DNA of 64,000 nucleotides from a virus. Both the position numbers and the translations under genes were made by a program. Within the stretch, counting starts at the first letter, position 1, and each line of letters starts with the position of its first letter. Under the pieces are notes generated by a model that did not search any database, had not been told where the DNA came from, and saw nothing but the letters and a program-made list of their open reading frames with translations. Below are positions 4,261 through 63,334 of the stretch, piece by piece. The stretch lies in the IMG/VR virus record IMGVR_UViG_3300045120_000498, positions 63,515 through 127,514 of that record; one strand, given 5' to 3'.

Positions 4261-4544
4261 GACTTGCCGTCGAACACGAACGCCAGGACGCCATCGACCG
4301 GCGTCAGCGGACCGGGCGCCATCGTCGGCTCGACGCCGCGCAGCCCGCGGTCGGCGAAGTACGCGCTGGCCTCCGGCGTCTCGGCCAGCGACTCGATGTC
4401 GCCACCCTCGATCAGCGCGGACACCTCGCTGTCCGACGTGTAGTGCTCTCGCAACACGTCCAGCGCGTCCTTGTCGTCGCGAAGGAAGACCGACCGGTAC
4501 AGGTCGTGCTCGGGGTCAACCAACTGGTACAGAATCGCGGTCAC
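4233..4544 (-). CDS. Hypothetical protein (103 aa)
   Basis: GTG start after GAGGGAG SD. Confidence 0.7.
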   Translation of the reverse strand: MTAILYQLVDPEHDLYRSVFLRDDKDALDVLREHYTSDSEVSALIEGGDIESLAETPEASAYFADRGLRGVEPTMAPGPLTPVDGVLAFVFDGKSWSAGPEAT

Positions 4545-4555
4545 GGTGTCTCCCT

Positions 4556-4603
4556 CGTCTCGGTGTGCCCCCGCGCTCGCCACCGAGACGTGCGAGCGCG
4601 GGG
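4556..4603 (-). promoter_or_regulatory. Two interleaved perfect inverted repeats (pseudoknot or switch) between ku and the next gene
   Basis: 10-bp stem 4556-65/4581-90 and 12-bp stem 4569-80/4592-4603. Confidence 0.55.
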
Positions 4604-4615
4604 ACGGGGGGAACT

Positions 4616-5455
4616 CTACGCCGACGCGGCGGCGCGCTTGCGCTTGTTCGCAGCGACCAGCGACGCCTCCAGCGCAGCCATCAGGTTGTCCGCCGCCTTC
4701 TTCGGAGCCGCGGACACCGGCGCCTTGTCGATGGGCTTCCCGGCCGCGGCCTTCGCGATCAACTCGACCCGGCGCTCGCGCACCTCGTCCGTGAGCGAGT
4801 CGATGGCATCGACCGGCTCGGTGTAGGTCGCCACGAGCGCGCGTGCTGCCTCCAGGTGGCGCTTGTCGGAGTCCAGCCCGGCGAGCGACCCCATCGCCTC
4901 GTCGATCTGCCGGAAGTCCTCAGCCCACGCCAGCGTGTTGACGATCAGCCCGTCGCCCTCCGGGTACACGACCGCGAGATGCTGGAGCGAGCGCGGCATC
5001 AGCTTGAACACGCCCGCCATCGCGCCACGCTTCTCGGCGCCCTTCGGGATCGGCTTCAGCGCGTCGAGCAGCAGCCGCAGCGCCGTCGGCGACGATCCCT
5101 TCGCGGGCATCAGGTAGTAGCTGTCGAGCACCCGCGCGCGCGAGATGTCGGCCAGCGGCACGAAGAACTCCACGTCGAACGAGTCGAGCTTCGTGGCCGC
5201 CTCGATGTTCGCGATGGCCTCGTCGGGGATCGGATAGAACGTCCCGTCCTCGTCGCGGAAGCCCTTCGCGATGTCGGCGGCTTCGAGTGTCTTGCCGGTG
5301 TCGGCGTCCACCTCGATCCGCTTCACCGCGGCGCCGCCTTCCTTGGCGCCCCGGTGGAAGTTCACCTCGCCCTTGGTCGTGATCTTGCGTAGCGCCACGG
5401 GCACGTGGAACGTGCCCCCGATGCTCAGTGTGCTGTTCCGCACGGTCGATGCCAT
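4616..5455 (-). CDS. ku: Ku (NHEJ DNA end-binding) protein
   Basis: Prokaryotic Ku core pattern: ...VPVALRK...VNFH...VDADTGKTLEAADIAKGF...FDVEFFVP...DSYYLMP...LLLDAL...LAVVYP...LIVNTLAWAEDFR, with basic C-tail. Confidence 0.9.
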   Translation of the reverse strand: MASTVRNSTLSIGGTFHVPVALRKITTKGEVNFHRGAKEGGAAVKRIEVDADTGKTLEAADIAKGFRDEDGTFYPIPDEAIANIEAATKLDSFDVEFFVPLADISRARVLDSYYLMPAKGSSPTALRLLLDALKPIPKGAEKRGAMAGVFKLMPRSLQHLAVVYPEGDGLIVNTLAWAEDFRQIDEAMGSLAGLDSDKRHLEAARALVATYTEPVDAIDSLTDEVRERRVELIAKAAAGKPIDKAPVSAAPKKAADNLMAALEASLVAANKRKRAAASA

Positions 5456-5890: not shown

Positions 5891-8800
5891 TACCGACCTC
5901 CCCTGCGCACCGTCACGGTCGTCCCCATCTGGGAGGCGCCGGTCTGCACCGAGACGCCCGCCTGGACGCCGCCGCTCACCGTAGCAATCGTGCCTCCGCC
6001 GTTGCCGTTCGCGCCGACTCCGGCCAGGACCCGCCCCTCGTCGTCGCTCACCGCGGCGACCACGCCGCCCACCCGGCTGACGATGGCCTCGACGGTCGGC
6101 GTGCCGAACGTCAGTGTGCTGGCGATCCCGTCCGCCTCGATGTGCGCCTCGGTCGCCATCAGCAGGTCGGACTGGGGCGAGAGCAGGCCCGCGTACGCCG
6201 TCGCCAGCGCCCGCCGGATCGCGCTCACCGGCGCGACCGCTCCGCCCAGCGCCTTCCCGGCGGACCGCTTCACCAGGCCGACCGGCGCCAGCGCGCCGCT
6301 GATCAGCAGCGGAACCGCGTGCGACACCGAGTCTGCGCCGGACAGCGGCAGCGCCGCCGTAAACCGCTTCGCGCTCGACTTGACCCGCGCCCCGGTCGGC
6401 GCCAGCGCCCCGGCCAGCGGCTTCCCAACCGACCGCCGCAATGGCGCGGTCAGCGCGAGCGCGCCCGACAAGGCCACCAGGAACGCGCGTGCCGTCGCCA
6501 GCGTCGCCGCAGGCGAGACGCTGCCCGTCATCCGCCGCGCCGTCTGCCGCGTCTCCGTACCCGCCGGAACGGTCGATCCGGTGTACCGGGTGGTCGTCGT
6601 GCGGATCACGATGCTCGTCGGCGTCGCCGAGCCGACCGTCCTCGGCGTGCTCGCACGACGCATGATCCCGATAGGGTTCAGCGCCGCCGACAGCGCGACC
6701 AGGTACGCCTTCGACGTAGCGAACGTACTGGCCGGAGTGATCGTGCCGGTCGCCTTCTTCGCCGTGTTGCGAGCCACCGCGCCGGTCGTGCCGACCGCGC
6801 CGGTCAGCGGCTTGCCGGTCGAGCGGAACAGGTTGCCGATGGGCGCCAGCGATCCGGCCAGCGCCCGCGTGGTCGAGAACCGCAGCGTCGCGGCCGGAGT
6901 GATCGTCCCGGTCAGCCTCCGCGCGAGCGACCTCGCGACCACACCCGCGGGCGCCACCGTGCCCACGAACGTGCGTGTGAGCTTCCGCGTCTCCGTCCCG
7001 GTCGGCGCGACCAGGGCCGACAGCGCCTTGCCGGTGTTGCGAGCGAGCGTGGCTGCCGGAGCGACGGTGCCGCCCATCGACAGCAGGAACCCGCGGATCG
7101 GCGTCACCGCTCCCGCCGGAGCCAGCGCGCCAGTCATCGTCTTCGTCATCGCGCGCTTCAGCGTCGCGGCTGGAGCGAGCGCCGCCGTCAGCGCCAGCGC
7201 GTAGGCGTGCGACATGGCCGTCACGCTGGCGGTCGGTGTGATCGCGCCGGTCGGCTTCTTGCCCGTCTGCCGCGTCTCCGTACCGGCCGACGTGATCGCG
7301 CCCGCCAGCGAGCGCGGGATCGACTTCGTGGCTACACCGGTCAGACCGAGCGCGGCCGTCAGCGTCCGAGCGAGCGCCCACCGCAGCGCCGACGTGCCCG
7401 GCGTGATCGACCCGCCGACGTTCTTCCGCGTCTGCTGGACGAGCGCCGACGGCCCCGGCGTGATCGCGCCCGCGAACGCCCGCACGAACGCCCGCGACGC
7501 AGCCAGCGTCCCAGCCGGAGTCAGCGTCCCGGCCACGCCGTGCGCGGTCGAGCGGGCCAGCGCACCGACCGACGTGATCGTCCCGGCCAGCGCGCGCGGG
7601 ATCGACTTCGTGAGCAGCCCGACGGGAGCCACCGCGCCCGCCGTCTTCTTGCCAGTCTGCCTTGTCTCGACCCCGGCCGGAGTGATCGTCCCGGCCATCG
7701 GGTGCGACGTGTTGCGAGCGACGACGCCGGTCGGCGAGAGCGTGCCCGCCGTGAGCTTGCCCATCGACCGCTTCTCCACGCCCGCCGACGTGATCGTCCC
7801 GGCCGCCGTCACCGCTCGCGTCAGCGTCCGCGCGAGCACGCCCGCCGACGTGACCGTGCCCGCCATCAGGTGCGTAGTCGAGCGCACCTCGGCGCCGGTG
7901 GGCGAGAGCGTGCCGCCCGGCGTGATCGGATAGGTCGTCGTCCCAGCGACCTTGTTCGCCGCCAGCGCGCCGGTCGGCGCCGTCGAGCCGGTCAGCGTCC
8001 GCGTGATCGAGTAGGCGTCCGCGCTCGGCCCCGGCGTGACCGTCCCGGTCAGCGTGCGTGCCCACTGCCGCGTCTCCACGCCAACGGGAGTGACCGCCGC
8101 GTCCGGAGCCACCCACCCAGTCCGGGCCGCCGTGGCGGACCCGCCGCGGAACACGTCCACCCGCGCGGTCGTGTCACCGAACTCGAACGCGAACCGGCCC
8201 GCCACCGGAGGGATCAGCGTGTTCGTCGCGGTCAGCACCAGCGACCAGCCGCCCGACCTGGTGAAGCGGTAGAAGTCAATCTTCGGGCCGACCTGCCGCA
8301 CGCCCACCGTATCGCCCGCCGCGAACGGAACCGCCGCGGATGCCAGCACGCCGGTGTCGGCCCCGCCCACGTTGCCGCGCAACTCCCACGTGAAGTTCGG
8401 CGACCCCTGCACGAGCCGCAGCGCGTACGCCGTGAACGTCGAGCCGGGGTTCGCGATGCCCCACCAGAACTTGACGTACGACGCCGCCGTCGGCAGCACC
8501 GGCACCTCGAACTGGTAGTCGAACGGCGGCGAGTGAGTGATCAGGCCGCGGACACCGCCGCTCGCTGCCCCCGCCGCCATCCGCAGCGCCGAGACGTTCA
8601 CGTTCGCGATCCCGTCGTTCGCCGAGACGGTGTTCCAAATCCCGGGGCCGCCAACGTCCACCGTGCCGTTCGCGCGGTCGAAGTCGTCCAGCGTCGTTGA
8701 CTTGGACGGATACCTGCCGACCCGCGTGTACGCCCCCGTCGGCCCGCCGCTCGTGAGCGTGCCAGTGAACGTCCGCGCCCACGACTTCGCGAGCGCACCG

Positions 8801-14482: not shown

Positions 14483-14853
14483 GTCTCGGGCACCTCGCGC
14501 GGGACGCGCTTGCGGGCGAACGCCGCCGCGCGTACCGCGATGATCTGGGATCGCAGCCACACTGGGCCGGACCCGAGGATTGCGACTGGCGTCGGGACCA
14601 GGCCGTTCCTGATCCACTTCGCGAGTCGCGGCTTCTCGACGGACAGGATCACCGCCGCTTCACCCGTGCCGACAAGCTCGTCGTCGAGCGGTGGTAGCTC
14701 CACGTTCAGGCGCTCCAGCACGCTCGCAACACGAACCTGCTTGACCCCGCTGTCGATCTTGGCCTGTAGCCACGCTCGTGTCTCCGGGGCGAGCATCGGC
14801 GCAAGCGAAGCATCGACCTGATCGTCCATTGGAGTCTCGATGCTGCTTGCCAT
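14479..14853 (-). CDS. HTH (MerR/AlpA/Xis-like) DNA-binding protein, candidate cassette regulator
   Basis: LVGTGEAAVILSVEKPRLAKWIRNGLVPTPVAILGSGPVW; ATG 7 nt after the -10 of cassette P5. Confidence 0.7.
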   Translation of the reverse strand: MASSIETPMDDQVDASLAPMLAPETRAWLQAKIDSGVKQVRVASVLERLNVELPPLDDELVGTGEAAVILSVEKPRLAKWIRNGLVPTPVAILGSGPVWLRSQIIAVRAAAFARKRVPREVPET

Positions 14854-16676: not shown

Positions 16677-17576
16677 CTAGCCAAGCGTCAACTGCGTCTG
16701 CGCCAACTCCGCCGTGCACTCGATGCTGCACGTCTGCGGCGGCCGCTTCCTGGTGCCCGGGTTGAACGGCTCGCAACACACCGCGCAGCGCGGCCAGTGG
16801 TCGGTCCCGCGAGGAATCGTCGGATCGACGTACTGCATCACCGAGACGACGGTACGCGGATTCTCGGTGTCGAGCGTCATGCCCGTCGCCTTCGCCGTCA
16901 CCTGCGCGTCGTCCAACCACAGCCCACCATCGTTTCCCGCATCGAGCACCAGCTTCTCCAGGTTGTCCACGTCGATCCGTCGCCGCGACCCGAGCGCGAA
17001 GAACAGGCCCAGCGCCACGTTCCCGCGAAGCGTCGGCAGCGTCGCGAAGCGGGCCGCCAGCACGTCCCTCGCGGCCGTCGCGGCCTTCGGCACGTAATGC
17101 CCCCCGTCCGGGCGCGTCCCGGCACGCGGCCACGGGACCGGCGCGCCAGGCACCTCGATCACCAGCCCGGTCGCGCCGTGGCGGCCGACCAGCCACCCAA
17201 CCGACACGCCCGCGATCATCGACGCCTCGCCGCCCACCCGGCCGCCGTCCCGCAGCAGGTGCGTGCCGTCGTCGAACTCCACCCCGATCCGGAACGCGCG
17301 GTCGATCACCGCACCAGCCGACCGGCCCATCTGATGCGCCAGCAGCGCCACCGACGCCACGCCGTCCGCGCGCGCCTCCGGGAACTCGGCCCTGATCCGC
17401 GCATCCTCCCGCGCCCGGAACACACGCCGGAAGTCGTCCCGGCGCCGCACGCCCTCCTTCTTGAACCGCTGCTCCACCGACGCCCGCTGATTGCCGACCT
17501 CCAGCGCCACCAGCGCCGTATGCCCGAGCCGCGCGTACGACTCGATCAGCGCCTCCAACGGCAGACTCCGCGCCAT
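16677..17576 (-). CDS. rusA: RusA-family Holliday junction resolvase with N-terminal extension and C-terminal Cys motif
   Basis: VPGAPVPWPR...RIDVDNLEKLVLDAGN.GLWLDDAQV catalytic pattern. Confidence 0.85.
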   Translation of the reverse strand: MARSLPLEALIESYARLGHTALVALEVGNQRASVEQRFKKEGVRRRDDFRRVFRAREDARIRAEFPEARADGVASVALLAHQMGRSAGAVIDRAFRIGVEFDDGTHLLRDGGRVGGEASMIAGVSVGWLVGRHGATGLVIEVPGAPVPWPRAGTRPDGGHYVPKAATAARDVLAARFATLPTLRGNVALGLFFALGSRRRIDVDNLEKLVLDAGNDGGLWLDDAQVTAKATGMTLDTENPRTVVSVMQYVDPTIPRGTDHWPRCAVCCEPFNPGTRKRPPQTCSIECTAELAQTQLTLG

Positions 17577-20223: not shown

Positions 20224-20490
20224 TCAGTCCCGCAGCCACTCCAGCGGGATCGGGAAGTCGTCCTCGTGATCCTCGACGCCGACCAACCGACCGTCGAACG
20301 CCGCCTTGAACTCGTGCACCGCCATCGCCTCCCGGTACACCCGCCGCAGCCGCGACGACACGTGCCCGGTCGAGAGCATCAGCGAGTAGTCCGGCAGCCC
20401 CGCGACCATCTCTCGCAACACGACCAGCGCCTCCGCCGAGTACGTCGCCGCGCCGGTCGCGCCCGGCGGCTTCACCCGGTACGTCTTCAC
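20224..20490 (-). CDS. Hypothetical protein (88 aa)
   Basis: Coupled GTG start. Confidence 0.55.
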   Translation of the reverse strand: MKTYRVKPPGATGAATYSAEALVVLREMVAGLPDYSLMLSTGHVSSRLRRVYREAMAVHEFKAAFDGRLVGVEDHEDDFPIPLEWLRD

Positions 20491-21608: not shown

Positions 21609-22909
21609 TCAGCGCCCCGCGCGTGCGCCTCCGCCAGCGCCCCCTCCAACGCCGCCAGGATCACCGCATCCTCCTCGTTCGACTTGTCCTTCCGAGGCAC
21701 GTGCTCCACGTACCGCGTCGAGAGCGTCTTCCGGTACAGCCGGTCCGGATTCACCTCGCCCAACGCCAGCGCCGTCTCCAACGCCTCCCGCGTCGGCCGC
21801 TCGACCCGCTCAGACGCCACGTAGCCGTACACCCGCGGCCCCTTCGCATCCCGGATCGGCACCGGCCCATGCACGTCCGACCACGCCTGAAGCGCCGCCC
21901 GCGCCTGCTTCGCGACCGCCGCGCCGACCACCAGTTGCCGCGCCGTCCGCTGCGCATCCACCGCGTCGATGATCTTCCCCTCGCGGCGCAGGTTGATCGG
22001 GATGGGACACGCCTCCGGCCGCAGACAGAACGAGCACCGCTTCCCCGGCGACGGCGGGAACAGCCGCTCCGACCACGACCGGTCGAACCGCTCCACCAGC
22101 GCCGCCATCTCCAACCGCACGTCCTCCAGCGCCTCCCGCGTCAGCGTCGCCTCGCGCGGCTCCGAGTAGCGCGGATAGAACTCGCGCAGCGTCACCCGCT
22201 CGATGCTCGGGTAGTTGTCGAACACCAGCAGCGCGTAGAACCGCTGCTGGAAGTAGCCGCCGAACGACACCTCCGCGGTCGCCGGAAGCGCCCACGTGTC
22301 CTTGAAGTCGATCACGATGGCGTCCCGGTCGCCGTGCTCCGCGAACAGCGCGTCAAGCTGCCCCGTCACCGTCCGAGACACGTAGCCACCGTGGCCGTCC
22401 GGGTAACGCACCGTCGCCGACAGCCGTTCCTCGACCGCCACCAGGTTCGACACGTCCCACTCCGTGTCATGCGCGAACTTCTTGACCACCATGTAGAGGT
22501 CCTTCACCTCGCGCAACGGCAGGTTCATCAGTTGCGACGCGAACTCGTGCCCGCACTCGCGGCACTTCCGGTGCGACCGCGCATCCATCCCCCGCGCGAT
22601 GTCCGTCGAACCGCACACCGGACACTGCCGGTCGGCGTCGTCCTGTCGCAACACGTCATGCAGGATCGCCAGCGCCGCATCGACCGGGATCGACCCCTCC
22701 TTCATCTTCGCCATGTCCAGAAGGCACTGCGCAGCGACCCGGTGGAAGATCGTCCCGCGCGCCTGCGGCGTCGTCGCGCCGATCCGATCCTCCGCCTCCC
22801 ACCGCGCCGACAACGCGCACTCGTCGAAGGCCGACAGCATCGACTGCCGCACACGCGGGAACTTCAGCACCGCCGCCGCGTACGGCCCCAGCCCCTCGGT
22901 CGTCACCAT
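21605..22909 (-). CDS. PD-(D/E)XK (RecB/RecE-like) exonuclease with zinc-ribbon insertion
   Basis: RQSMLSAFDEC...GTIFH...TGQLDALF...IVIDFKDT...QQRFYA...CSFC..PEACP. Confidence 0.85.
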   Translation of the reverse strand: MVTTEGLGPYAAAVLKFPRVRQSMLSAFDECALSARWEAEDRIGATTPQARGTIFHRVAAQCLLDMAKMKEGSIPVDAALAILHDVLRQDDADRQCPVCGSTDIARGMDARSHRKCRECGHEFASQLMNLPLREVKDLYMVVKKFAHDTEWDVSNLVAVEERLSATVRYPDGHGGYVSRTVTGQLDALFAEHGDRDAIVIDFKDTWALPATAEVSFGGYFQQRFYALLVFDNYPSIERVTLREFYPRYSEPREATLTREALEDVRLEMAALVERFDRSWSERLFPPSPGKRCSFCLRPEACPIPINLRREGKIIDAVDAQRTARQLVVGAAVAKQARAALQAWSDVHGPVPIRDAKGPRVYGYVASERVERPTREALETALALGEVNPDRLYRKTLSTRYVEHVPRKDKSNEEDAVILAALEGALAEAHARGAE

Positions 22910-40028: not shown

Positions 40029-40125
40029 GCCGCCTCCTAGCGGTAGTGGGGTCGGCGCGGATCACGCATAACGACTGCCCCCGCGGGACTGCCGATAGAG
40101 GCTCCACGCGCCTCTCGCAACACAG

Positions 40126-48327: not shown

Positions 48328-48426
48328 CACCCGATTCCCACGTTTGGACTGTAGCGGACGTGCTGCCGCCGATACATACCGTGCATCTTCCCGCAATGAC
48401 AGCAGCCTCGCAACACACGCCCCTGG

Positions 48427-49077
48427 CTAGCCAGTCCGGCTGTGCACGGCTGCCACATACTGACCGGCGGTCGTCGTCTTCGGTCGGCCAGCCTTATCCC
48501 AGGCCCTCGCCGCTGCCCAGCCGACGTTGTACGCCGCCAGCGCGAGGTCCCAATCCTTCTTCCCGTTCACCGTCAGCACGCCGTCGTACGCCTCGCGCAT
48601 GTAGTCCGCCTGCCACCGCACGCAGAACGTCACGTCGTACGCCGACGAGTCCGAAACCTCGGGGTGCCAGCGGCCATTGATCTGCGCCGGGCCGCGATCC
48701 TCCATGTTCGCCGACACGCACGCGAAGTCGTCCGCCGACTCCAACTCCAACTGCTGCGCGATCAGCATGTCCGGCGCGTGCACCCGGTTCGCCTCCAGCT
48801 TCGCGCGCTTGCGGATCAGCACCTTGGCCGTCTTCGGTCCGACCACGCCATCGACCTCCAGCGCGTTGCGCTGCTGGAACGTCTTGATCGCCCGGTCGGT
48901 GCCCTGCCCGATGCTCGCAACACCCATCTCCATGCCGCCCTGCGGCACCCCGTTGAAGACCAACTCGAACTTGATCGACAGCACCGCCCAGCCGACCCGC
49001 GAATCGTGCGGCGCCCGCAGCCCGTTCGCGAAGAACACGTCCCACGTCCCGTCCTTGAAGAACGAGTCCTTCTCCAT
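48427..49077 (-). CDS. Endolysin: PG-binding + lytic transglycosylase (SLT-like)
   Basis: AIKTFQ..NALEVDGVVGPKT; LES...RGPAQIN...ALAAYNVG. Confidence 0.8.
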   Translation of the reverse strand: MEKDSFFKDGTWDVFFANGLRAPHDSRVGWAVLSIKFELVFNGVPQGGMEMGVASIGQGTDRAIKTFQQRNALEVDGVVGPKTAKVLIRKRAKLEANRVHAPDMLIAQQLELESADDFACVSANMEDRGPAQINGRWHPEVSDSSAYDVTFCVRWQADYMREAYDGVLTVNGKKDWDLALAAYNVGWAAARAWDKAGRPKTTTAGQYVAAVHSRTG

Positions 49078-51718: not shown

Positions 51719-53472
51719 TAGCGGCTCGGCCTCCGGTTCGCCTGCCGATGCGCCGCCAGTGCCGCCGCGATCCGCTTGTGCACCCGCCGAAGCTCGCGCA
51801 CCGACTCGCCCATCCGCACCGGGTCCTTCTCGTTCGCGATCCACGGATGCGTGCCGTCCTTCAGCGCCGCCCGCGAGTTCGTCAGGAACCGCGACGCCCG
51901 CTGCCACTGCTCCTCGTCCGCCGTACCGGTCGCGAATGCGTCGATCAGGTCGCGATGGCCGCCCACGTCGAGCATCCCCTGCCGCATCGCGTCCATGTGC
52001 TCACGATCCGGCTGCCGGTGGCGCATCGCCCGCTGCTCGGCCGCCAACTCGCTCCGGGTGAACTTCGGCATCTGCCGATCCTCCGGCACCGGCCCCACCG
52101 GCGACTGGCCCTTCGACTTCGGCCGCGTCGAGCCGTGGATCGCCTGCCACTCGTGCGGCTCGGTGCTCACGCCCATGTCCTCGTTCGCGTGCAGCCGCAC
52201 CGCCTTCGACCAGTCGAACTCCAGGTGCGACGCGCCCGTGTCATGCGCGTGCGCCACGTCCACCGGCACCATCCGCGTGCCCTGCTTCCGTGGACCGACC
52301 TGCCGCCAGGCGACGATCTGCCCCGTGTTGCGAGAGCGCGCGAACCCGGCCGCGCTGTGATGCTCGGGATGCACCTCGCGGTGGGTGATTTCGTACTCCG
52401 GCCCGCGGCCCTGCCCCGGGAAGTGCGCGTTCCCGGTCGCGTGATGGATCACGTACCGGCCGCCCATGCGCGACGGCGCGCCGCCAGCCAGGCTCGTGAT
52501 CGTGTCCGGGTGCGCCGTCGTCTTCCCCGACGCGAACAAGTTGTGCGCGGTCGCCGACGCCGCCCGATGGTGCGCTTGCCGGTCGCGGTTCTCCTGCCGC
52601 GCCCGCTCCAGCCAGTCATCGCCCGACTCTGCGCGAGCACGCGGGATCGTCGGCAGCGCGCCCGTCGGCGCGGCTCGCGCCATCCGCATCGCTTCCGCGC
52701 GCGAGAACGTCCCCGGCTGCCGCTTGTCGTTCACGTCCACGACGTGCTCCCGTGTCCCTTCCAGCCGCTTCACGCGCACGGTCGCGTTGTCGCCGCGGCG
52801 GCGGTACGCCCCGACGAACAACTCCCGGCCGCTGCGCCGGTTCTCCAGGGACGCGAACATATCGACCGAGAGCCTGTCCAGATTCCGCTGGATCGCGCCC
52901 GCGTCAACGAAGTCCTCGCGCCCCGCAGGCTTCGGCCCCGCGGGCTTCGCGCTCGCAATGGGCCTCCCCTGCGGCCGGTCGCGCATCAGCGGCACCCGTT
53001 CGGCTGGCCGCGCCGCCTCGCGCTTCAGCGCCGTGCGCTTGATCGCCACCTCGCGCCGCCGTTCAGCGGCCGACCCGCCGGTCGGCAGGAACTTGCCGGT
53101 GCGAGGCTCCACCGGGTAGCCCCCGATGTGCGGCGTGAACGTCCGCGCCCATCGGCCCTTCCGGTCGTGCGGGTGCAGGATGTTGTAGGCCGCCGACGAC
53201 TCCGACTCCTGGAGCGTGGGACCCAGCATCTTCTCCAGCCCGAGCGCCTTCGCCCGCTGCCGGATGTGCGCCATCGCCGCCGCCCGGTTCTTCGCCCGCC
53301 CGAGCGCCTGAATCGCGTTCTTCAGGTCGCTCGCGTTCCGGATCGGATAGCTGCCGTCCGGGAGCGCGTGGCCCTTCTCGGCCAGCTTCTCGCGCTGCGC
53401 GGTCGAAAACTCCGCCTCCGCCATGTTGGCCGCGACGGCCCGGCGCTGCTGCTCTGATCCCTGCCAGCCCAT
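51718..53472 (-). CDS. Probable head cargo protein (DUF6582-like domain + HPHD tag + unknown domains)
   Basis: ALPDGSYPIRN.SDL.NAI...GR...HI.QRAKALG; LQES...LHPHDRKGRW. Confidence 0.7.
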   Translation of the reverse strand: MGWQGSEQQRRAVAANMAEAEFSTAQREKLAEKGHALPDGSYPIRNASDLKNAIQALGRAKNRAAAMAHIRQRAKALGLEKMLGPTLQESESSAAYNILHPHDRKGRWARTFTPHIGGYPVEPRTGKFLPTGGSAAERRREVAIKRTALKREAARPAERVPLMRDRPQGRPIASAKPAGPKPAGREDFVDAGAIQRNLDRLSVDMFASLENRRSGRELFVGAYRRRGDNATVRVKRLEGTREHVVDVNDKRQPGTFSRAEAMRMARAAPTGALPTIPRARAESGDDWLERARQENRDRQAHHRAASATAHNLFASGKTTAHPDTITSLAGGAPSRMGGRYVIHHATGNAHFPGQGRGPEYEITHREVHPEHHSAAGFARSRNTGQIVAWRQVGPRKQGTRMVPVDVAHAHDTGASHLEFDWSKAVRLHANEDMGVSTEPHEWQAIHGSTRPKSKGQSPVGPVPEDRQMPKFTRSELAAEQRAMRHRQPDREHMDAMRQGMLDVGGHRDLIDAFATGTADEEQWQRASRFLTNSRAALKDGTHPWIANEKDPVRMGESVRELRRVHKRIAAALAAHRQANRRPSR

Positions 53473-53492: not shown

Positions 53493-54665
53493 TCACTCAC
53501 CGGCTTGATAGGCGTGCACGCCGGTCGGATCGAACAGGTTCCGCTGCACGGCCCGCTGCCGATGATGCCACGCCTCCGACCCCACGTCGGACGACACGAC
53601 CAGCTTCCGGCCGTCCACGATCTTCTCGACCTTCCGCACGCCCGCGTCCTTCCCGTACGTGCGCACCCGCACCGCCCTCAACTTCTGCATCGCCAGCGCC
53701 GCGGTGTCGTGCCGGTCGCGCGCCTCCCGGTCGGTCGCGCGCTTGTCCTTCGCCTCGTCGATCACGGCCTGCAACCGCGCCATCATCCGCGACAGGTCAC
53801 GCGGCTCGATGTCGCCCGACGCGAGCTTGTCCGCCAGCGGCTTGTCCTTGCCGCCCGTCGCCTGCTGGTGCAGTTGCGCCACCTGCTTCAGCAGCGCGTG
53901 ATGTGGCGTGAAGTCCGGCTTCTCCGGACCGATCGGCGCCGCGTGCCCAGCGTGTGGCTCGACGTGCACGCCCAGGCCCTTGATCCACTCGCCGCCGCGG
54001 CCGCGCGGATGCTCCGTCTCGTCGTACGCGCTCGCAACACCGGACGCGACCTTCTTGCCGCCGCGACCGAACAGCCCTTCCTCGATGTCGCGGTAGTCCT
54101 GGAGCGCGGCCGCCGCCAGCGCCATCTCGCCAGTGCCCGGCGTCATCGTCGTGTAGCCACGCGCAATCGCCGCTCGCCGCTTCTTCTCCGCGTCCGACGG
54201 CTCGTTGCTCGAACGCACGACGTGCAGGTGCCGCTCGACCGCCTGCGTGCGCTGCATCGACTGCTTCCACTGCGCCGACAGATCACGGGTCATGCTCAGG
54301 TCCCCCTCGGCCCACGTGTCGCCCCGCAGGAACGGCCGCTGCGTCGTCGCGTCGTGATAGCCGCCCTGCGGCATCCGGATCGCCCACCCGCCGACGCGAC
54401 CGCCGACGGCGTTCAGCCGCACCACCCGGCTCCGCGGCAGCCCCGCCGACACGCTCTCCGCGTGCCACTTGTCCGCGAAGTACGTCGTCCCGCCAACCGT
54501 CTCCGTGCCCGGCGGCCCCACGTTCGGCCCGCCCATGAGTCCCTGATGCCGACCCGGGATGTCCGACAGGTGCGGGAAGGTCGTCTTCCACCGGCCCCTC
54601 CGGTCGTGCGGGTGCAGCCGTTCGTCGTACATCGCCTCGCGCACGCGACCGCTCATGGCCGACAT
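53493..54665 (-). CDS. Probable head cargo protein with two HP tags
   Basis: VREAMYDERLHPHDRRGRW; YDETEHPRGRGGEW. Confidence 0.7.
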   Translation of the reverse strand: MSAMSGRVREAMYDERLHPHDRRGRWKTTFPHLSDIPGRHQGLMGGPNVGPPGTETVGGTTYFADKWHAESVSAGLPRSRVVRLNAVGGRVGGWAIRMPQGGYHDATTQRPFLRGDTWAEGDLSMTRDLSAQWKQSMQRTQAVERHLHVVRSSNEPSDAEKKRRAAIARGYTTMTPGTGEMALAAAALQDYRDIEEGLFGRGGKKVASGVASAYDETEHPRGRGGEWIKGLGVHVEPHAGHAAPIGPEKPDFTPHHALLKQVAQLHQQATGGKDKPLADKLASGDIEPRDLSRMMARLQAVIDEAKDKRATDREARDRHDTAALAMQKLRAVRVRTYGKDAGVRKVEKIVDGRKLVVSSDVGSEAWHHRQRAVQRNLFDPTGVHAYQAGE

Positions 54666-58154: not shown

Positions 58155-61014
58155 CGGACACTCCCATCGTCAGCGCGACCGCCTCGCGCACCGTCTCGGC
58201 TGTCAGGCCCATCTGCACCTTCCGGTCGAAGTCCGTCACCGGCTCGCCGTTCAGGCGACGGCCGACCATGCCCAGCAGCTTCTCCGCCGCCCGGCTCATC
58301 TGCACCGGCACGTCCGCCTCCGTCAGCCCCGCCCGCTGCGTCAGCCCGAACCGGCGGTGCTCCGGCTGATCGTCCGGGTTCAGGAAGATCGGCTCCGGCG
58401 TGAACCGGTAGTCCCGGTCGTAGGCGTCCCACTCGAACATCAGGTCGTCCGGCCGATCCTCGTCGTACTCGGCGTAGATCAGCCCGTCCATCGTGTCGAG
58501 CGCCCACGTCGTCGCGTCCTCGCGCTCGAACCCGGCCAACTCCAGCGCGTCTGCCGTGTCGTGGCCCGCCTGGATGTCCTCGATGACACCCTTGACGGCC
58601 TCGCGCGCGTCGTCCGTCCAGTCCTCCGTCGGCCCCTTCGGCGGCTGGATGCGGGTCATCTTGATCGACTTCGGCTCGTCTCGGCTGACCCGCCACTGCT
58701 GCTTCGGGTCGGACCGCAGCAGGTGATGCGCTCGCAACACACCCTCGACCGCCTTGCCGACCGGCTCCCACTCCTGCGGCGGCCACCGGTGCACCGCGCC
58801 GGTCTGCTTCTCGAACTCGCCACGGAACGAGTCGGGCATCGTCGTCCCGAGCCACTGCGCGTACGCCCGCGCCCACAACTCATGCGGCGACGCCGTGTAC
58901 GTCTGATCGCTCGGGTGCAGCCCCACCGAGCGCGTCATCGCCGTCTTGAAGAACCGCCGCCACGCCACCCGCTGCTCCGGCCGGATGAACTGGGCGTCAA
59001 TCGCCGTCGGCTCGTTCGCCGCCACCGTGCTCATCATCAGCATCCCCGGCACCGGGATGTAGCCCATCCGCTCGTGCGCGAGCGCCGCGTCCAGCACGTG
59101 CCCCATCTCGTGCGCGAAGATCAGCCCGCCATAGCCGTCGTCCAGCGTCTCCGAGCGCACCGAGACAGTCCAGTCCGGCGGCGCCGTGTCGCTCGTCACC
59201 GCCCGCACTTCGCCTAGCGCGCGGCCCGTCCGATCACCGCCGACATCCTGCTCCTCGATGATGTGGAAGTCGTCCGGCAGCGCAGGCCAGGCGTGCGCCT
59301 TCGCCATGTGCTGCGCCACCTCGTAGATGGATGTCGTCTCCCGGCCAGGCTTCATGCCCTCCGCGAGCGCGTCCCCGAGCCTCGCGCGGAGCGCCGCCGT
59401 GATCGCTTCGGGCGGCTCCATCTCGCGCGTCCTCGGGTTGCCAATCTCGCGCGACTGGTACGCCAGCGGAATCGGCATCACCACGTACTGCTGCGCGCTC
59501 GTCATCGGGCCGCCGTCGCTGGCGCGCGTGAACTGCACCCCCTCGCCGTACACCCCCGTCATCAGCCGGGCGCCCATCGCGTCCGCCTCGCGCTGCGTGA
59601 GGTCCTGCGGTTCCTCATCCGGACGCCCGCCCCGCGCGATCCCGGCCGCAGCCGCGAACGCCTCGCCCGACGGCGACCGCTCGCCCGTGTCCGTCGTCAG
59701 CGGCAGGCCCGTCTCGTGCCGCGCCACCGCGAGCAGCTTCGACGCGACGCCCTGCCGCCGCACCGACTCATCCACGTGCACAAGCTCGACCGTGCCGCGG
59801 CGCTCGTCCACCGTCAGCAGCCCCAGCGGCAGCCCGGCCGCGAACGCGCCGAACACCCGCGTCGAGGTTTGCATCCCGTGCACCTCGGCCAGGGCCACCG
59901 GTCGGTCCTCGCCCAGGAACCGCACCGTGAACGGCCCCGACCCGGCGCGTGCCTGCGCGCTCGGCCGCGTGTACGTCCGCGCCCACCGCCCGAGGCGATC
60001 ATGCGGATGCCGCAGCTTGTCCCACAGCACGTTCGCCGCTTCCTCGACCGGCTCCACCTCGTCCCACCACGGCAGCGTCGTCACGTCCGGCCCGACGATC
60101 TCCTCGCCGTCCACGACCACCCGATCCGGATGCACCTCCGGCTCCGGCGCGTCCGCCTCGTCCGCCGCCTGCATGATCACCGTCGTCGTCTTCAGCTTCG
60201 GCGGCGACTTCGACGACACCCGTCCCGTCGAGCCGCGGCCGCCCAGCGGCTTGCCGCCCTTCCGCGTCGCAGGCTCATCCGCCGACAGGAACCCCGTCCG
60301 CGACTTGCCCGACTCCACCTCCGCCCGGCGCGCGTTGATCCGCCGCATCGCCTGCACCGTCACGACACCCGTCGGCGGCAGCCCGTAGCCCGACTGGAAC
60401 AGCCGCACGGCCTTCTCTAGCTCCGGGCCGAACACGCCGTCCACCGCCACGTCGTAGCCCAGGTGCTCCAGCATCGTCTGGATGTTCTTGACCCGCGAGT
60501 CCGGGTGCTCCTTCGTGCCCATCCCGATCTTCGCGTACTCGTTCTTGCCCAGCTTCACGACACCCGGCTTCGCCACGCTCGCGCTCGCGCTCGTGCTCGT
60601 CTTCGCAGCCGCCTTCGCAGCCGCGTCCACCTGCGCCGCCGTGTGCGCGTTACGCAGCGCCACCACCGTCCGCTGGTCGAGCTTCCCGGTCACCGGCAGC
60701 CCACGCGACTTCTGGAACTCCGCGACCGACTTCACCCCAGCCGACTTCAACATCTGCGCCGTCGTCGCCGGACGCTGCTGCCGCTGCTGCTTGCGCAACT
60801 GCGCCTGCGTCTGCGACTTCTTCGCGAACTGTCCGCCGCCGACCCGGCCCATCGCCGTCCGCGGATGCGCCTGATTGAACGCGCCCTGCGCCGCGGTCGT
60901 CCCACCCCGGCCCTTCGGCGCCGCCGCCCTCGCCTGCTGGCGCGACGCGACCGAGTACGCCGCCTGCCCCCTCTCGCCCGCGCCACCCGCCAACTGCTGG
61001 CCGTATGTCGCCAT
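58144..61014 (-). CDS. Polyvalent protein (956 aa): 2 PG-binding domains, GNAT, LPD1-like zinc metallopeptidase, two HP tags
   Basis: FQKSRGLPVTG; VDGVFG...FQSGYGLPPTG; VHVDESVRRQGVASKLL; FAHEMGHVLD...HELWARAYAQW. Confidence 0.8.
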   Translation of the reverse strand: MATYGQQLAGGAGERGQAAYSVASRQQARAAAPKGRGGTTAAQGAFNQAHPRTAMGRVGGGQFAKKSQTQAQLRKQQRQQRPATTAQMLKSAGVKSVAEFQKSRGLPVTGKLDQRTVVALRNAHTAAQVDAAAKAAAKTSTSASASVAKPGVVKLGKNEYAKIGMGTKEHPDSRVKNIQTMLEHLGYDVAVDGVFGPELEKAVRLFQSGYGLPPTGVVTVQAMRRINARRAEVESGKSRTGFLSADEPATRKGGKPLGGRGSTGRVSSKSPPKLKTTTVIMQAADEADAPEPEVHPDRVVVDGEEIVGPDVTTLPWWDEVEPVEEAANVLWDKLRHPHDRLGRWARTYTRPSAQARAGSGPFTVRFLGEDRPVALAEVHGMQTSTRVFGAFAAGLPLGLLTVDERRGTVELVHVDESVRRQGVASKLLAVARHETGLPLTTDTGERSPSGEAFAAAAGIARGGRPDEEPQDLTQREADAMGARLMTGVYGEGVQFTRASDGGPMTSAQQYVVMPIPLAYQSREIGNPRTREMEPPEAITAALRARLGDALAEGMKPGRETTSIYEVAQHMAKAHAWPALPDDFHIIEEQDVGGDRTGRALGEVRAVTSDTAPPDWTVSVRSETLDDGYGGLIFAHEMGHVLDAALAHERMGYIPVPGMLMMSTVAANEPTAIDAQFIRPEQRVAWRRFFKTAMTRSVGLHPSDQTYTASPHELWARAYAQWLGTTMPDSFRGEFEKQTGAVHRWPPQEWEPVGKAVEGVLRAHHLLRSDPKQQWRVSRDEPKSIKMTRIQPPKGPTEDWTDDAREAVKGVIEDIQAGHDTADALELAGFEREDATTWALDTMDGLIYAEYDEDRPDDLMFEWDAYDRDYRFTPEPIFLNPDDQPEHRRFGLTQRAGLTEADVPVQMSRAAEKLLGMVGRRLNGEPVTDFDRKVQMGLTAETVREAVALTMGVSDEG

Positions 61015-61051
61015 CTGACGGGAGAGGTTACACGCCGCCACCCGGCGCCGG

Positions 61052-61522
61052 TTACTTCGTCGGCGCGGGCTTCGCTGCGGGCGCTGCGGCCTGCTCCGCG
61101 GGCTTCTCCGGAGCCGCCGGTGGCTGCGGAGGCTGGCCCTCGTCCGGCGGCGCCTCTCCCGTGCCGTCGTCCGGCCCGTCTCCCTGCGCCGCTGCGGCCG
61201 CGCTGGAGTCCATGTTCCCCGCCGCCACCGCCGTCCACGCCTCGCCGCCGTTCTTGAAGATCGCGTCCGGCTCCCACTCGGGCGGAGCCTCCGTGTCCGG
61301 GTCATCGAAGTACCGCAGCCCCGATCCGGCGTTCGGCGTCTCGAAAGGCACGTCCACCGCGATGCCCTCGGACAGCAAGTCCTCGGTGCTCATCCCGGGC
61401 TTGATCGCCGGTTCGCCCGTCTCGTCGCCGCCGTCGCCGCCATCCCCGGCCCTGGGGTCAGCAGCAGCAGGCGGCGTCGCGTCATCGGCGGGCTTTCCGT
61501 CGTCTTCGCGGGGACGCGCCAT
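61052..61522 (-). CDS. Acidic Pro-rich hypothetical protein
   Basis: Low complexity, SD-led. Confidence 0.6.
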   Translation of the reverse strand: MARPREDDGKPADDATPPAAADPRAGDGGDGGDETGEPAIKPGMSTEDLLSEGIAVDVPFETPNAGSGLRYFDDPDTEAPPEWEPDAIFKNGGEAWTAVAAGNMDSSAAAAAQGDGPDDGTGEAPPDEGQPPQPPAAPEKPAEQAAAPAAKPAPTK

Positions 61523-61531
61523 CCGGTCATC

Positions 61532-63334
61532 CTAGCGGGCGGGATGCCGCGGGCGCGCGTCCACGCCCTCGATCTTCTCCTGCGCCTTGGCCTGCAACTT
61601 CTGCCAGAGCGCCTGGTCGATCACCTTGAACTCGCCCGTCGTCGGATCGAACTCCGCGTACGGCTTCGGCGGCCGGAACAGCTTCTTCGGCTGGCCGTCC
61701 TTGCCGACCTCCGTCTCCGACAGGTCGAATCCCTGATCGTTGTCGTACACCGTCACGTGCGGCAGGCCCGTCGCTCCCTTCCCGTGCTCGTCCGCCAACC
61801 GCTGCATGAAGTCCGGGATGGTCGCCGCCACGTCCCGGTGCACGGCCCGCATCACGACCTCCGGGATGTGCCGCCGGTCGGCATCCGCCTTCGCGCCCGC
61901 CGCGCGCCCCGCCGCGCGGTTCAGCGCCTCCTGCGTCGGGATGTCCGTGTAGAGGATGTTCACCGCGCCCGGCACGTCGTTGCCCGCCTTGTCCTTGCCG
62001 TAGCCCGCGTCGCTGAACGACCGCACCCGGTCGCGAATCTCGTCCGTGCTCGTGTCCGAGATGCCGTCCACGATCATGTTCAGCCGCTTCGCTTGCGCCC
62101 GGCGCTGGAGTTCCTGGGCAATCTCCCACGCCTCCCGGTAGACCTGAAGGTTCCCCTCGGGATCGTCCTCGTCGAGCGCCTGCTTGTATTCCGGCAGCAT
62201 CGCCTTGATCCGATCCGGGTCGAGCGTGATCGCGCTCTGCGGCACCCGGCCCTGCTTCCGCGCCAGCTTGATCGACGCGCCCTTCCCCGCCGCGTACCCG
62301 CCGCCCGAGAACATCACCTTCGGCACGCCGTCCGCGTCCGGCTCCAGGTACTTGCCGTTCGGGTCCATGTGCAGATCACCGTTGTCGTCGATGACCGGCT
62401 CGCGCAGCAGCGCGTCAATGATCGCCTCGTGAATCTTCCGGCGCGCGCTCGACCACCGCACCGTCCCATCCGGCTGCACACGCGCGTACTTGTCGAACGT
62501 GTCGTCCTTCGACCCCGCGTCCCGCGCGAACGCCAGCAGCGTGTGTTGCGAGACGGACCCGGCCGGGTTGAAGTGCGCCTCCGCCATCTGGAGTTGCCGA
62601 CCGCGCGTCGCCGCCGACAGCTTGCTCCGAAGCCGCTGGCCCAGCGACTCGGCCTTCGCCTTGTTCGCCTCCGACTGGCCCTTCTCGCGCTGCACGATTT
62701 CGGACGCGCCGACACCGCCCTCCGGCGTCTCCAGCTTCGGCGTCTCGGTGCCCGGCACCTTCGACGTGTCCAGCTTCCGCTCGCGCGCGCCCGGGTGCGG
62801 CGGCGGCTTCGGCGGCTTCGGGCCGGTCGGCGTCGGGTGCTTCACGTTGCCGCCGCGGCCCTTCACGCGCGGCTTGTCCTTCTTCGAGAACACGTGCCCA
62901 TACGTCCTCGAAAACCGGCCCGTGCCGCGGTCGTGCGGATGCAGCTTCGTGTCGTACTTCTTCGCGATCCCGACGATGTTGCCGATCCCCTCCGACAACG
63001 GGTAAAGCTCGGCCAGCGCCGCCTCCAGCAGGCCCTCCTCCTCCAGATCGTCGAGCACCCCGTGCGACAGCATCCCGCTCTCGTCGAGCGTCGCTTCGTC
63101 CGCCTCGCCGCGCCGCAGCAGTTCCTCGCGGATCGTCGCGTTGTGCCGCGCGAGCGCGTGCCGCGTCTCGGCCTCCATCGTCTCAGCCTCGCGCCGCAGG
63201 TCGTCGTCCGCCAGGTAGTGGTCGATCCGCCCTAGCGCCGCCTCCGGCCCCTCTCGCAACACCAGCAGCTTCGCCCGCCGCTCGTCCGGGTCACCCGTCT
63301 GGGCCGCGGACTCGATCTGCGCCGTCCAGTCCAT
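61532..63334 (-). CDS. Zeta-toxin-like P-loop kinase with N-terminal propeptide and HP tag
   Basis: VMFSGGGYAAGKG, LDPDRIKAMLPEY, NMIVDGI, YTDIP..EALNRAAGRA...RHIP; leaderless ATG 6 nt after TAGACT. Confidence 0.8.
   Translation of the reverse strand: MDWTAQIESAAQTGDPDERRAKLLVLREGPEAALGRIDHYLADDDLRREAETMEAETRHALARHNATIREELLRRGEADEATLDESGMLSHGVLDDLEEEGLLEAALAELYPLSEGIGNIVGIAKKYDTKLHPHDRGTGRFSRTYGHVFSKKDKPRVKGRGGNVKHPTPTGPKPPKPPPHPGARERKLDTSKVPGTETPKLETPEGGVGASEIVQREKGQSEANKAKAESLGQRLRSKLSAATRGRQLQMAEAHFNPAGSVSQHTLLAFARDAGSKDDTFDKYARVQPDGTVRWSSARRKIHEAIIDALLREPVIDDNGDLHMDPNGKYLEPDADGVPKVMFSGGGYAAGKGASIKLARKQGRVPQSAITLDPDRIKAMLPEYKQALDEDDPEGNLQVYREAWEIAQELQRRAQAKRLNMIVDGISDTSTDEIRDRVRSFSDAGYGKDKAGNDVPGAVNILYTDIPTQEALNRAAGRAAGAKADADRRHIPEVVMRAVHRDVAATIPDFMQRLADEHGKGATGLPHVTVYDNDQGFDLSETEVGKDGQPKKLFRPPKPYAEFDPTTGEFKVIDQALWQKLQAKAQEKIEGVDARPRHPAR

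Follow-up and report, generated by a model that had tools for sequence, protein, structure and literature searches.

Why would a phage carry one exact ten-base word, written into gene after gene, every few kilobases along its genome? The question is raised by a stretch of 64,000 nucleotides (the window), the right half of the 127,514-bp virus record IMGVR_UViG_3300045120_000498, from an apparently lytic, uncultured soil myovirus. The word, CTCGCAACAC, occurs in the window as 20 exact copies, 14 on the + strand and 6 on the - strand; a recount reproduced the number, the strand split and every coordinate given in a preliminary description of this DNA, and located its three near copies at 22645, 37069 and 39712, each of which reads GTCGCAACAC. 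Only a handful of cultured phage groups are known to have such words, among them nick motifs and stoperators.

Enrichment and exactness of the word

Dinucleotide shuffles of the window yielded a mean of 0.21 copies of CTCGCAACAC and a maximum of 3, compared with the 20 real copies. The whole record holds 47 exact copies (33 on the + strand, 14 on the - strand), against an order-3 Markov expectation of 0.38, and by the same measure the word is by far the most enriched 10-mer of the record. The preliminary description had called for a codon-aware null, which was run as 200 genome-wide synonymous-codon shuffles with the proteins held constant; these gave a mean of 0.34 copies and a maximum of 3 versus the 43 genic copies observed.

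One-letter variants of the word number 14 in the record versus 11.3 expected, the surplus lying mainly at position 1 (6 versus 1.0 expected). Because such variants reach chance level except at position 1, the strict core is TCGCAACAC, with a strong preference for a C before it. The near copy at 22645..22654 (+) leaves the 9-base core unbroken; that at 37069..37078 (+), in a tape-measure-size gene, and that at 39712..39721 (-) are both kept in G001, a relative with 98.7% identity. The copy at 37069..37078 partly fills the longest gap between exact copies. The flanks of the exact copies bear no mutual resemblance.

Placement along the genome

All 206 called genes lie on one strand; copies of the word face either way and fall in all six frames, and the frames listed for it previously (VLR, VAS/VAR, CCE, ARNT/SRNT and SQH) are correct. 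Coding sequence contains 43 of the 47 copies, the remaining 4 being intergenic, and with a non-coding share of 6.6% of the genome the word is equally dense between genes and within them. Two copies that had been described as intergenic do fall outside genes, at 40114..40123 (+), immediately downstream of gene 40126-40317, and at 48407..48416 (+); both are kept in G001. The word is thus not bound to gene starts or transcription. Its copies are distributed over 35 or more genes at a mean genome-wide density of about one per 2.7 kb (one per 3.1 kb in genes shared with relatives, one per 2.1 kb in unique genes). Their spacing is more even than random, with a coefficient of variation (CV) of 0.75 for all copies (P about 0.02) and of 0.66 for the 33 copies in the major orientation (P = 0.009), evidence that coverage of the genome by the word matters.

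Cost in codons and protein sequence

The codons that the word imposes are rare in this genome: TTG makes up 9% of Leu codons, CGA 4% of Arg, GTT 3% of Val, TCT 1% of Ser and CAA 5% of Gln, so that codon usage confirms the rarity previously claimed for TTG, CGA, GTT and CAA. The rare pair TTG CGA is nonetheless used in frame by 21 copies of the word. Among the 67 peptide sites in the record able to encode the word, 43 do, about two thirds of the possible places, including 21 of 28 VLR[ADEGV] peptides and all 9 [APST]RNT peptides. Both peptide classes are themselves over-represented (28 versus 9 expected, and 9 versus 1.5 expected for ARNT/SRNT and their variants), while word-compatible peptides without the word occur at baseline frequency.

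At most word sites the residues differ from those of the orthologues. In the VLR frame, the copy at 4448..4457 (+), whose sense (-) strand reads GTGTTGCGAG, encodes VLRE in gene 4233-4583; that at 20412..20421 (+) encodes VLRE in gene 20224-20490 (orthologue EIRG); that at 26057..26066 (+) encodes VLRA in gene 24792-26579 (orthologue VRQA); that at 30731..30740 (+), kept in G001, encodes VLRA in gene 29688-30785 (orthologues VERA and MQRV); and that at 58731..58740 (+) encodes VLRA in gene 58144-61041, which has a peptidoglycan-binding domain. A second frame gives RVAS at 14723..14732 (+) in gene 14479-14829, where the orthologue in G003 has RITS; RVAR at 22946..22955 (+) in gene 22903-23163; RVAS at 44539..44548 (+) in gene 44139-44687 (orthologues RTLE, RLFD and similar); and GVAS both at 48914..48923 (+) in gene 48427-49095, a site kept in G001, and at 54031..54040 (+) in gene 53493-54665. 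The third yields VCCE at 16770..16779 (+) in the RusA-domain gene 16677-17576, where the orthologue has GCGE.

Of the copies in the opposite orientation, three, at 6764..6773, 7034..7043 and 7709..7718 (all -; at the first the sense strand reads CTCGCAACAC), encode ARNT within degenerate peptide repeats of a giant gene (5890-10785, or up to 12261), as the preliminary description had stated, and other repeat units of this gene lack the word. SRNT is encoded at 52325..52334 (-) in gene 51718-53496 and at 42861..42870 (-) in gene 42602-43201. At the latter site S/A-RNT is found in 11 of 11 members of the 90% protein cluster, the S-to-A change touching only the base that precedes the word, and relatives at 60-70% identity have VRNE, ERYE, DRED or TRNA. 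Two conserved peptides, both in the zeta-kinase-like gene 61532-63334, show the word built by codon choice alone: VSQH at 62543..62552 (-), where SQH is present in all homologues, and VLRE at 63253..63262 (+), where homologues keep VLRE or VLRD and the word arises from the rare codons TTG and CGA.

Three results, a count more than 100-fold over the codon-preserving null, copies facing both ways in every frame, and residues altered to fit, show that selection acts on the word as DNA and prevails over codon usage and, in many positions, over the amino-acid sequence. The earlier proposal of a DNA-level site is thereby strongly supported, and its general form, a selected DNA-level recognition word, holds. 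There are few cases this clear of a virus paying in both protein sequence and codon quality for a DNA word.

The word in related phages

All sites are conserved in G001. A more distant relative, L208 (72% nucleotide identity, from another sheath clade), has two exact copies in 7.9 kb, at non-orthologous places; the evidence from L208 consists of these two copies (P about 0.02 once the loci inspected are taken into account) and of peptide footprints. The [AS]RNT peptide at the L208 position is present in two more relatives and absent from 58,760 residues of sheath homologues. Neither the sister clade (G003 plus G015, 128 kb) nor a complete 125-kb relative contains a single copy of the word or an equivalent word. 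Across the sheath clades, the word is found in two non-sister lineages with a motif-free clade in between. As to the synonymous conservation in relatives that had been suggested as a check, near relatives do keep the sites, but distant ones lack the word or have it at other positions. Together these comparisons show that the word, its density and its spacing are maintained while individual positions turn over. The presence of the word in some lineages and its complete absence from a sister clade make a comparative search for the reader gene possible.

A putative reader from the phage lineage

We regard CTCGCAACAC as a recognition word in double-stranded DNA that natural selection maintains genome-wide; its placement shows that it works whichever way it faces and wherever it lies with respect to genes. 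The reader of the word may be a sequence-specific protein of the phage lineage, as opposed to a factor behind a signal common with the host chromosome, and would mark or process the phage's DNA at numerous sites. Such a reader is our best guess from the analysis, and we give it about an even chance of being right. The most concrete model would be site-specific nicking, by analogy with T5, tf and phiKMV-type phages and their nick-associated 9-mers; alternatively, a monomeric binder may label phage DNA as 'self', so that it is protected, organised or recombined. The only concrete candidate for the reader is a lineage-restricted HNH endonuclease gene at 26582-27073. It belongs to a set of 101 genes that have no homologues in the motif-free relatives, and because all 101 share that distribution, the fact that it occurs together with the word counts for almost nothing.

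A bolder version of the 'self' mark, which we consider rather unlikely, supposes that a translocating nuclease or similar scanner spares DNA showing CTCGCAACAC every few kilobases; as part of the same rather unlikely reading, that scanner, phage-encoded or taken from the host, would destroy word-free DNA such as the host chromosome or competing phages. If true, a phage lineage would possess a Chi-like logic of its own, for which viruses offer no described example, and this would explain the even coverage, the indifference to orientation and the sharpness of the word as well as its spread into newly acquired genes and its wholesale loss in the sister clade. Being exact, abundant and easily counted, the word lends itself directly to experiments by DAP-seq, native-DNA sequencing or recoding.

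Alternative explanations

That the excess has no function and stems from composition, peptide repeats, a mobile element or an assembly artefact is exceedingly improbable. Three copies do lie in peptide repeats of one gene, but every null fails by more than 100-fold, the flanks are unrelated, 35 or more genes hold copies and the same sites recur in an independent assembly from another sample; the reading was rejected since shuffles give far fewer copies than observed. A signal acting in mRNA, as a rare-codon pause at TTG-CGA or as an RNA or protein binding site, would agree with the 33 of 47 copies in the same sense and with the rare pair in frame at 21 of them. It is nevertheless very improbable, and copies in either orientation and every frame bring it close to refuted: the 14 opposite-sense copies are equally enriched (about 0.2 expected) and arose by amino-acid change (ARNT/SRNT, 9 versus 1.5 expected), three different frames are occupied in each orientation, and four copies are intergenic. 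Methylation, with the word as target of the phage's N6/N4 DNA methyltransferase and the methylated copies as the functional mark, seems improbable. The enzyme (424 residues), whose catalytic halves are kept apart by a large central insertion of about 250 residues, is only 41% identical to the homologue in a motif-free relative, where neighbouring genes are 65-70% identical, and adenines and cytosines in the word could be methylated. Against this, methylation targets are not normally enriched, so that selection for density would need a separate reader of the mark, and ten contiguous specified bases exceed the known recognition sites of solitary methyltransferases. A comparably poor prospect is a monomeric phage repressor that would sit on the asymmetric word at dozens of sites and halt transcription elongation, in the manner of the stoperators of Cluster A mycobacteriophages, where more than 20 asymmetric 13-mers are bound by a monomeric two-domain repressor. 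The asymmetry of the word, its lineage specificity and its tens of copies at about one per 2-3 kb match that precedent. Stoperators, however, lie in promoters and short intergenic spaces in one orientation relative to transcription; of the 47 copies in this record, 43 lie in genes and 14 (30%) are reversed though all genes point one way. Moreover, the 88%-complete record contains no match to Phage_integrase or Resolvase, hence no tyrosine or serine integrase was found in it, and no divergent immunity region; no repressor was recognised among the small HTH and MarR-like proteins that the phage encodes; and the phage's own promoter/operator box, GTGTGTATC, is strictly one-stranded and a different word from CTCGCAACAC. 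The analogy with mycobacteriophage L5 drawn in the preliminary description is accordingly a poor fit.

A host signal is a real rival explanation, though a less likely one. The word would then be read by a host enzyme, as a Chi-like stop for a RecBCD, AddAB or AdnAB-type nuclease or as an uptake-like word; the phage would gain it because word-bearing DNA survives or recombines better, and lineages sharing a host would share it. The anatomy agrees with that of uptake sequences (USS/DUS) and of Chi: the word is short and exact, faces both ways, uses every frame, sits where proteins are poorly conserved and is spaced more evenly than random, and its positions turn over. Its density is also uniform in core and accessory genes. 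Host range would easily explain the patchy spread over the sheath clades, and the presence of the word in two non-sister lineages is the outcome expected of a shared host factor. Against this reading, 401 evenly drawn Actinomycetota genomes (one phylum) show no enrichment, each holding at most 20 copies, like the reversed-word control. A paired-copy scan of bacterial genomes returned only tandem repeats and CRISPR-like arrays among the stretches listed, with no genome among 185,579 species' genomes having several non-repeat word pairs among those stretches; in five genomes picked from it the count does not exceed 66 copies per 8.6 Mb, most of them within arrays. Likewise, a scan of 2.9 million viral contigs returned no unrelated word-rich phage. 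Ku, RecT and an exonuclease are also encoded by the phage itself, a combination that usually goes with freedom from host Chi, and known Chi sites differ from the word in length (5-8 bases) and in being orientation-dependent. A host origin, as the earlier comparison with Chi, KOPS and matS sites would imply, is thus unsupported in the genomes searched.

Comparison with known systems

Our preferred reading, a protein of the phage lineage that would mark or process its own DNA, can be set against four kinds of dispersed word. USS of Pasteurellaceae and DUS of Neisseriaceae are exact 9-12-base words that face both ways and fall in every frame, located at tolerant protein positions or in compatible conserved peptides, evenly spaced and turning over in position; they belong to the chromosomes of competent bacteria, are driven by biased uptake and reach hundreds to thousands of copies. 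The present word resembles them in its exactness, orientations, frames, placement in proteins, even spread and turnover, but its carrier is a phage, and no searched bacterial genome is enriched. Chi is abundant in the host chromosome and over-represented in certain genomes of phages and plasmids, P1 among them. With Chi the word has in common its exactness, its kilobase spacing and its value in whole-molecule coverage; unlike it, Chi is short, orientation-dependent and host-abundant, none of which is seen here or in the genomes searched. The stoperators of Cluster A (L5 gp71, TipsytheTRex repressor) are likewise asymmetric, lineage-specific and present in dozens of copies at similar density; they are read by a monomer and belong to temperate phages, unlike the genic copies in both orientations found here in a record with no integrase found.

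The nick-associated motifs of T5/BF23, the phiKMV group and the tf/Rembedalsseter group, phages whose DNA bears localized single-strand interruptions, share with the word its length of 9-10 bases, its exactness and asymmetry, a density of about one copy per 3 kb, very few one-off variants, genic (43) as well as intergenic (4) copies, and strong enrichment (47 versus 0.38). In phage tf, all 14 copies of a 9-mer are nicked, with only 17 sites when one-off variants are counted, and the motif TACTRTGMC / WACTRTGAC of tf and the Rembedalsseter group shows enrichment, in genes as well as between them, over 61 diverged phages; the reader and purpose of nick motifs are unknown even in model phages, the purpose after 50 years. 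Nick motifs are conserved as words across diverged relatives; here, L208 carries the word at new positions and the sister clade has none. Every motif copy in tf and Rembedalsseter lies on one strand, unlike the 33:14 split seen here with 30% on the other strand. Nicks in the present phage are proposed by analogy. The enrichment of nick motifs is about 13-fold, and that of the 47 copies described here is more than 100-fold, in a genome where the word has demonstrably reshaped protein sequences.

Copy Number and Specificity of the Word

Counting the ten-base word CTCGCAACAC revealed 20 copies in the window (14 on the + and 6 on the − strand), every one of which the preliminary description had placed at exactly the right coordinates, and 47 copies in the whole record (33 on + and 14 on −), with unrelated sequence among the 47 copies over the 20 bases on each side. 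Under an order-3 Markov model, 0.38 copies would be expected genome-wide against the 47 observed, and by this measure the word is by far the most enriched 10-mer in the genome (log10 P ~ −79); dinucleotide shuffles of the window gave 0.21 copies, with a maximum of 3. The codon-aware null by which the preliminary description proposed to judge the count was also built, as a synonymous-codon permutation with all proteins kept, and 200 genome-wide trials returned 0.34 copies (maximum 3) against 43 observed in genes. Chance is excluded by every null that we built.

The word is also sharply bounded. Nested counts go from 47 for the 10-mer to 53 for TCGCAACAC and 57 for CGCAACAC, and the 30 one-letter variants together amount to 14 copies versus 11.3 expected. 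The variant excess is mostly at position 1 (6 versus 1.0, chiefly GTCGCAACAC) with the rest near chance, indicating that the unit is a 9-base core, the word without its first base, with a strongly preferred C before it.

Selection on DNA Rather Than Peptide or RNA

Forty-three copies are genic and four intergenic, the share expected in a genome with 6.6% non-coding DNA, and each orientation of the word uses all three reading frames, though all genes point one way. The peptides so written are VLRx (21), xVAS/R (8), xRNT (9), CCE (2), SQH (2) and LAT (1), and the 14 reversed copies mean that an mRNA or translational signal cannot be the explanation. TTGCGA as the −35 element of internal promoters was likewise dropped, there being no −10-like conservation after it.

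Word-compatible peptides occur at 67 sites in the proteome, 43 of which carry the word. It is present at 21 of 28 VLR[ADEGV] sites, written GTG TTG CGA G in a genome where TTG makes up 9% of Leu codons and CGA 4% of Arg codons, and at all nine [APST]RNT sites. The compatible peptides are themselves over-represented (28 VLR[ADEGV] versus ~9 expected, and 9 [APST]RNT versus ~1.5), while their word-less copies stand at the expected baseline, from which it follows that most sites arose by protein change. Alignable orthologs confirm that sites were made by changing the protein, reading VERD, RITS, GCGE, EIRG, VRQA, VERA/MQRV and ERYE/VRNA/VRNE where this phage has VLRD, RVAS, VCCE, VLRE, VLRA, VLRA and SRNT. 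Two sites in the zeta-kinase-like protein differ: homologs as distant as 50% identity retain the peptides VLRE/VLRD and SQH, and the word there is achieved purely through the codons chosen. One relative at 50% has ILRE written ATC CTG CGA GAG. The word is thus a selected, DNA-level, orientation-tolerant and coverage-dependent ten-base word that has reshaped phage proteins.

A giant gene on the − strand contains degenerate repeats of ~25-30 residues (xAGTITPAGxxxRxTxK; window 6650-7800), in which ARNT with the word is found in only 3 of ~12 units.

Orientation and Spacing

The 33:14 strand bias need not mean polar function, since forward-compatible peptides are far commoner than reverse-compatible ones (53 versus 14) and occupancy by the word is not forward-biased, being 31/53 forward and 12/14 reverse (P = 0.07, in the opposite direction to the bias). 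No orientation switch or alternation was seen along the genome, and 11 of the 14 reversed copies lie within 23-72 kb. The copies are distributed more evenly than random placement would give (CV 0.75, P ~0.02), also for the major-orientation copies alone (n = 33, CV 0.66, P = 0.009), and the longest gap is 9.4 kb between exact copies and 8.0 kb for the 9-base core. Density differs little between genes common to relatives (1 per 3.1 kb) and phage-unique genes (1 per 2.1 kb). The reader, whatever it is, seems to require the word all along the molecule.

Distribution among Relatives

In an independent contig with 98.67% identity over 25.6 kb, six exact and two near copies are all kept, which at 1.3% divergence is a weak test. 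In the 90% protein cluster of the gene at 42602-43201, S/A-RNT is found in 11/11 members, and the S-to-A change affects only the base before the word. Two contigs, one of 49.9 kb from a wastewater run and one of 5.2 kb from a soil run, are ~90% identical to window 40017-49906, with segments 40167-40331, 44243-44388, 44480-44581 and 48591-49068 replaced or diverged.

The sheath family is large and includes many uncultured genomes of 110-137 kb. Across 1.15 Mb of relatives' DNA the 9-base core was counted 8 times, a background level, and no relative locus has an equivalent coding-embedded word. The best-sampled sister clade, represented by 128 kb from a single metagenome (G003 and G015), shares synteny with roughly half of this phage's genes and has zero copies, as does the complete 125-kb relative G016. 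G003 (40.8 kb) and G015 (87.9 kb), both from metagenome 3300045303, have complementary gene content and, taken jointly (128.7 kb), are syntenic with the phage. Probably they are fragments of a single genome, the break falling between the orthologs of window genes 44139-44687 and 45402-46445. Scans for TerL in viral_contigs, for a 199-residue protein in metagenome_contigs and for the sheath in genome_contigs gave no match, these collections apparently being without near relatives.

The 7.9-kb contig L208, with 72% nucleotide identity and a sheath of a different sub-clade, carries two exact copies versus 0.02 expected (P ~0.02 allowing for all loci examined). These copies write VLRA and SRNT where this phage has DVAR and SSEA, and the three sites of this phage in the region are all without the word in L208. 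[AS]RNT at the L208 position is present in two more relatives (proteins P0154 and P0159), and 58,760 residues of sheath homologs contain no [APST]RNT. The L208 copies and these peptide footprints suggest that the word is older and wider than this lineage, that its positions turn over and that its distribution across clades is patchy. ACCTGGTGGA in loci L002-L004 was considered as an alternative dialect and rejected, as it is an orthologous DLVE made of common codons and not a dispersed word.

Other Dispersed Boxes

Two further sequences recur in this genome. GTGTGTATC, part of a promoter/operator box, has 19 copies, all on the + strand (window 2139, 2890, 2910, 3823, 5509, 16266, 17730, 51710, 55279 and 56949, plus 9 upstream of the window); in contrast to the ten-base word, this box is strictly one-stranded and intergenic. 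CCTTTCCGCGG, with 16 copies on one strand (window 2095, 2846, 5463, 51434, 55225 and 56904, plus 10 upstream), reads on the complementary strand as a CCGCGG stem and then a GGAAAGG ribosome-binding site, and has counterparts in CCGCAGAGAGG in G015/G003 and GACCGAGGAG in G016. These last two, the top words of their genomes, were rejected as analogs of the word, being a ribosome-binding-site cassette and promoter box instead.

Phage Genome and Gene Content

The window spans positions 63,515-127,514 of a single virus record, which is 127,514 bp long with 70% G+C; the phage is found in soil metagenome runs from ~15 studies and in one wastewater run. A codon-likelihood caller trained on the long ORFs of this genome identified 206 genes covering 93% of the DNA, every one on the − strand of the whole record. 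Third codon positions throughout the record favor G over C (GTG, CTG, CGG, GCG, TCG, ACG), in agreement with the strong negative GC skew of the + strand. The phage is of the contractile-tailed type, encoding a tail sheath, baseplate J and a gene of tape-measure size, together with a large terminase of the GpA type, a RecT and PD-(D/E)XK exonuclease pair, Ku, RusA, SSB, a DnaD/HTH_36 initiator, an SNF2 helicase, an N6/N4 DNA methyltransferase, an SNase-domain nuclease, an HNH endonuclease and the zeta-kinase-like protein. Integrase, resolvase, ParB and DnaB were looked for in the record (88% complete by CheckV) and not found, and the phage looks lytic. An HTH protein is encoded at window 14479-14829. 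There is one tRNA gene, tRNA-Trp, and an Rfam search gave no matches.

Two loci set this phage apart from all the relatives compared. One (L064:9357-11341, genome 29357-31341) has a GMC-family FAD oxidoreductase adjoining a small subunit like that of membrane FAD sorbitol dehydrogenases, which suggests an auxiliary metabolic pair; a protein atlas look-up with the oxidoreductase gave no host clue. The other encodes a 291-residue protein with DPBB (RlpA-like) and staphylococcal-nuclease domains (L065:5983-6858, genome 45983-46858). Close to the contig end, at a distance of 20-60 bases, the homopolymer runs G11 and C19 (window 63943-63977) may reflect either a terminal structure or an artifact of assembly; the record showed no terminal repeat.

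Possible Readers of the Word

We give about half of our confidence to a reader that is a protein of the phage lineage and marks or processes its own DNA. Among the 101 genes without homologs in the word-free relatives are the SNase-domain nuclease, a MarR-like protein (window 19166-19546) and the HNH endonuclease inserted among the tail-fiber genes, and the methyltransferase is unusually diverged (41%) from that of a word-free relative. The HNH endonuclease (163 residues; window 26582-27073, − strand, between tail-fiber-region genes) is absent from the word-free G003/G015 and G016, and may be either a candidate nickase or a homing endonuclease of the free-standing kind. Nicking would be the most concrete model for the action of such a reader on phage DNA.

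That host machinery reads the word, as a signal of the Chi or uptake-sequence type spread widely through the host chromosome, is the main rival, held at about half the confidence given to a phage reader; it would account for the patchiness across clades and for the USS-like anatomy, and found no support in the genomes searched. A scan for two copies of the word 40-70 bases apart covered 185,579 species at one genome each (genome_contigs), and the >120 stretches listed consisted of tandem repeats, CRISPR-like arrays, a 59-bp repeat of Micromonospora and lone pairs attributable to chance. Five candidate genomes counted whole had ≤66 copies per 8.6 Mb, mostly within arrays, and 401 evenly drawn genomes of one phylum, Actinomycetota (including 15 unpublished genomes, among them G017, G034, G064, G098, G104, G136 and G164, which contribute nothing but their counts), had 0-20 copies each, much as a reversed-word control did. 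When 2.9 million viral contigs were scanned in a similar way, local arrays were the only finds and no unrelated phage was rich in the word; a context-specific pattern tried on viral contigs matched an unrelated 40% GC contig.

A conserved 59-60-bp tandem repeat with GGGGCTCGCAACACCGGCTCAC is common among Micromonospora and Plantactinospora genomes, at L069:4860-5040 and ~45 further loci of Micromonosporaceae (L072 and L075 among them); it has no Rfam match and is unrelated to the phage word beyond the shared ten letters. A Streptomyces CRISPR-like repeat reading GTC(C/A)TCATCAGCCCTGGAGGGCTCGCAAC ends in CTCGCAAC (L080, L093, L149, L156, L166), and ~38 copies of a 36-base repeat ending in GTGTGTTGCGAG form a CRISPR-like array on the 61-kb viral contig L188, both repeats thus closing on letters of the word. 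A CRISPR link was judged coincidental, as the search design favors such arrays, the word cannot do without its final AC, and an anti-tag role would shield only ~1% of transcripts.

Comparison with Known Systems

The asymmetric 13-mers known as stoperators are read by a monomeric repressor, are sited at promoters and in short spaces between genes, and are active in one orientation only relative to transcription; the word has neither this placement nor a fixed orientation, and the phage looks lytic. Chi and the USS/DUS uptake sequences share the anatomy of the word, but they require an enriched bacterial chromosome, and none was found among the genomes searched. The closest formal match is to nick-associated motifs. 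In phage tf, TACTRTGMC is present 14 times over 46 kb and every copy is nicked (only 17 sites when one-off variants are counted); the motif, which has no known function, is enriched in genes and between them across 61 diverged phages. Motifs of this type are confined to a single strand, whereas the word lies on both. We file it as a genome-wide recognition word of the phage, outside the families of stoperators, nick motifs, USS/DUS and Chi.
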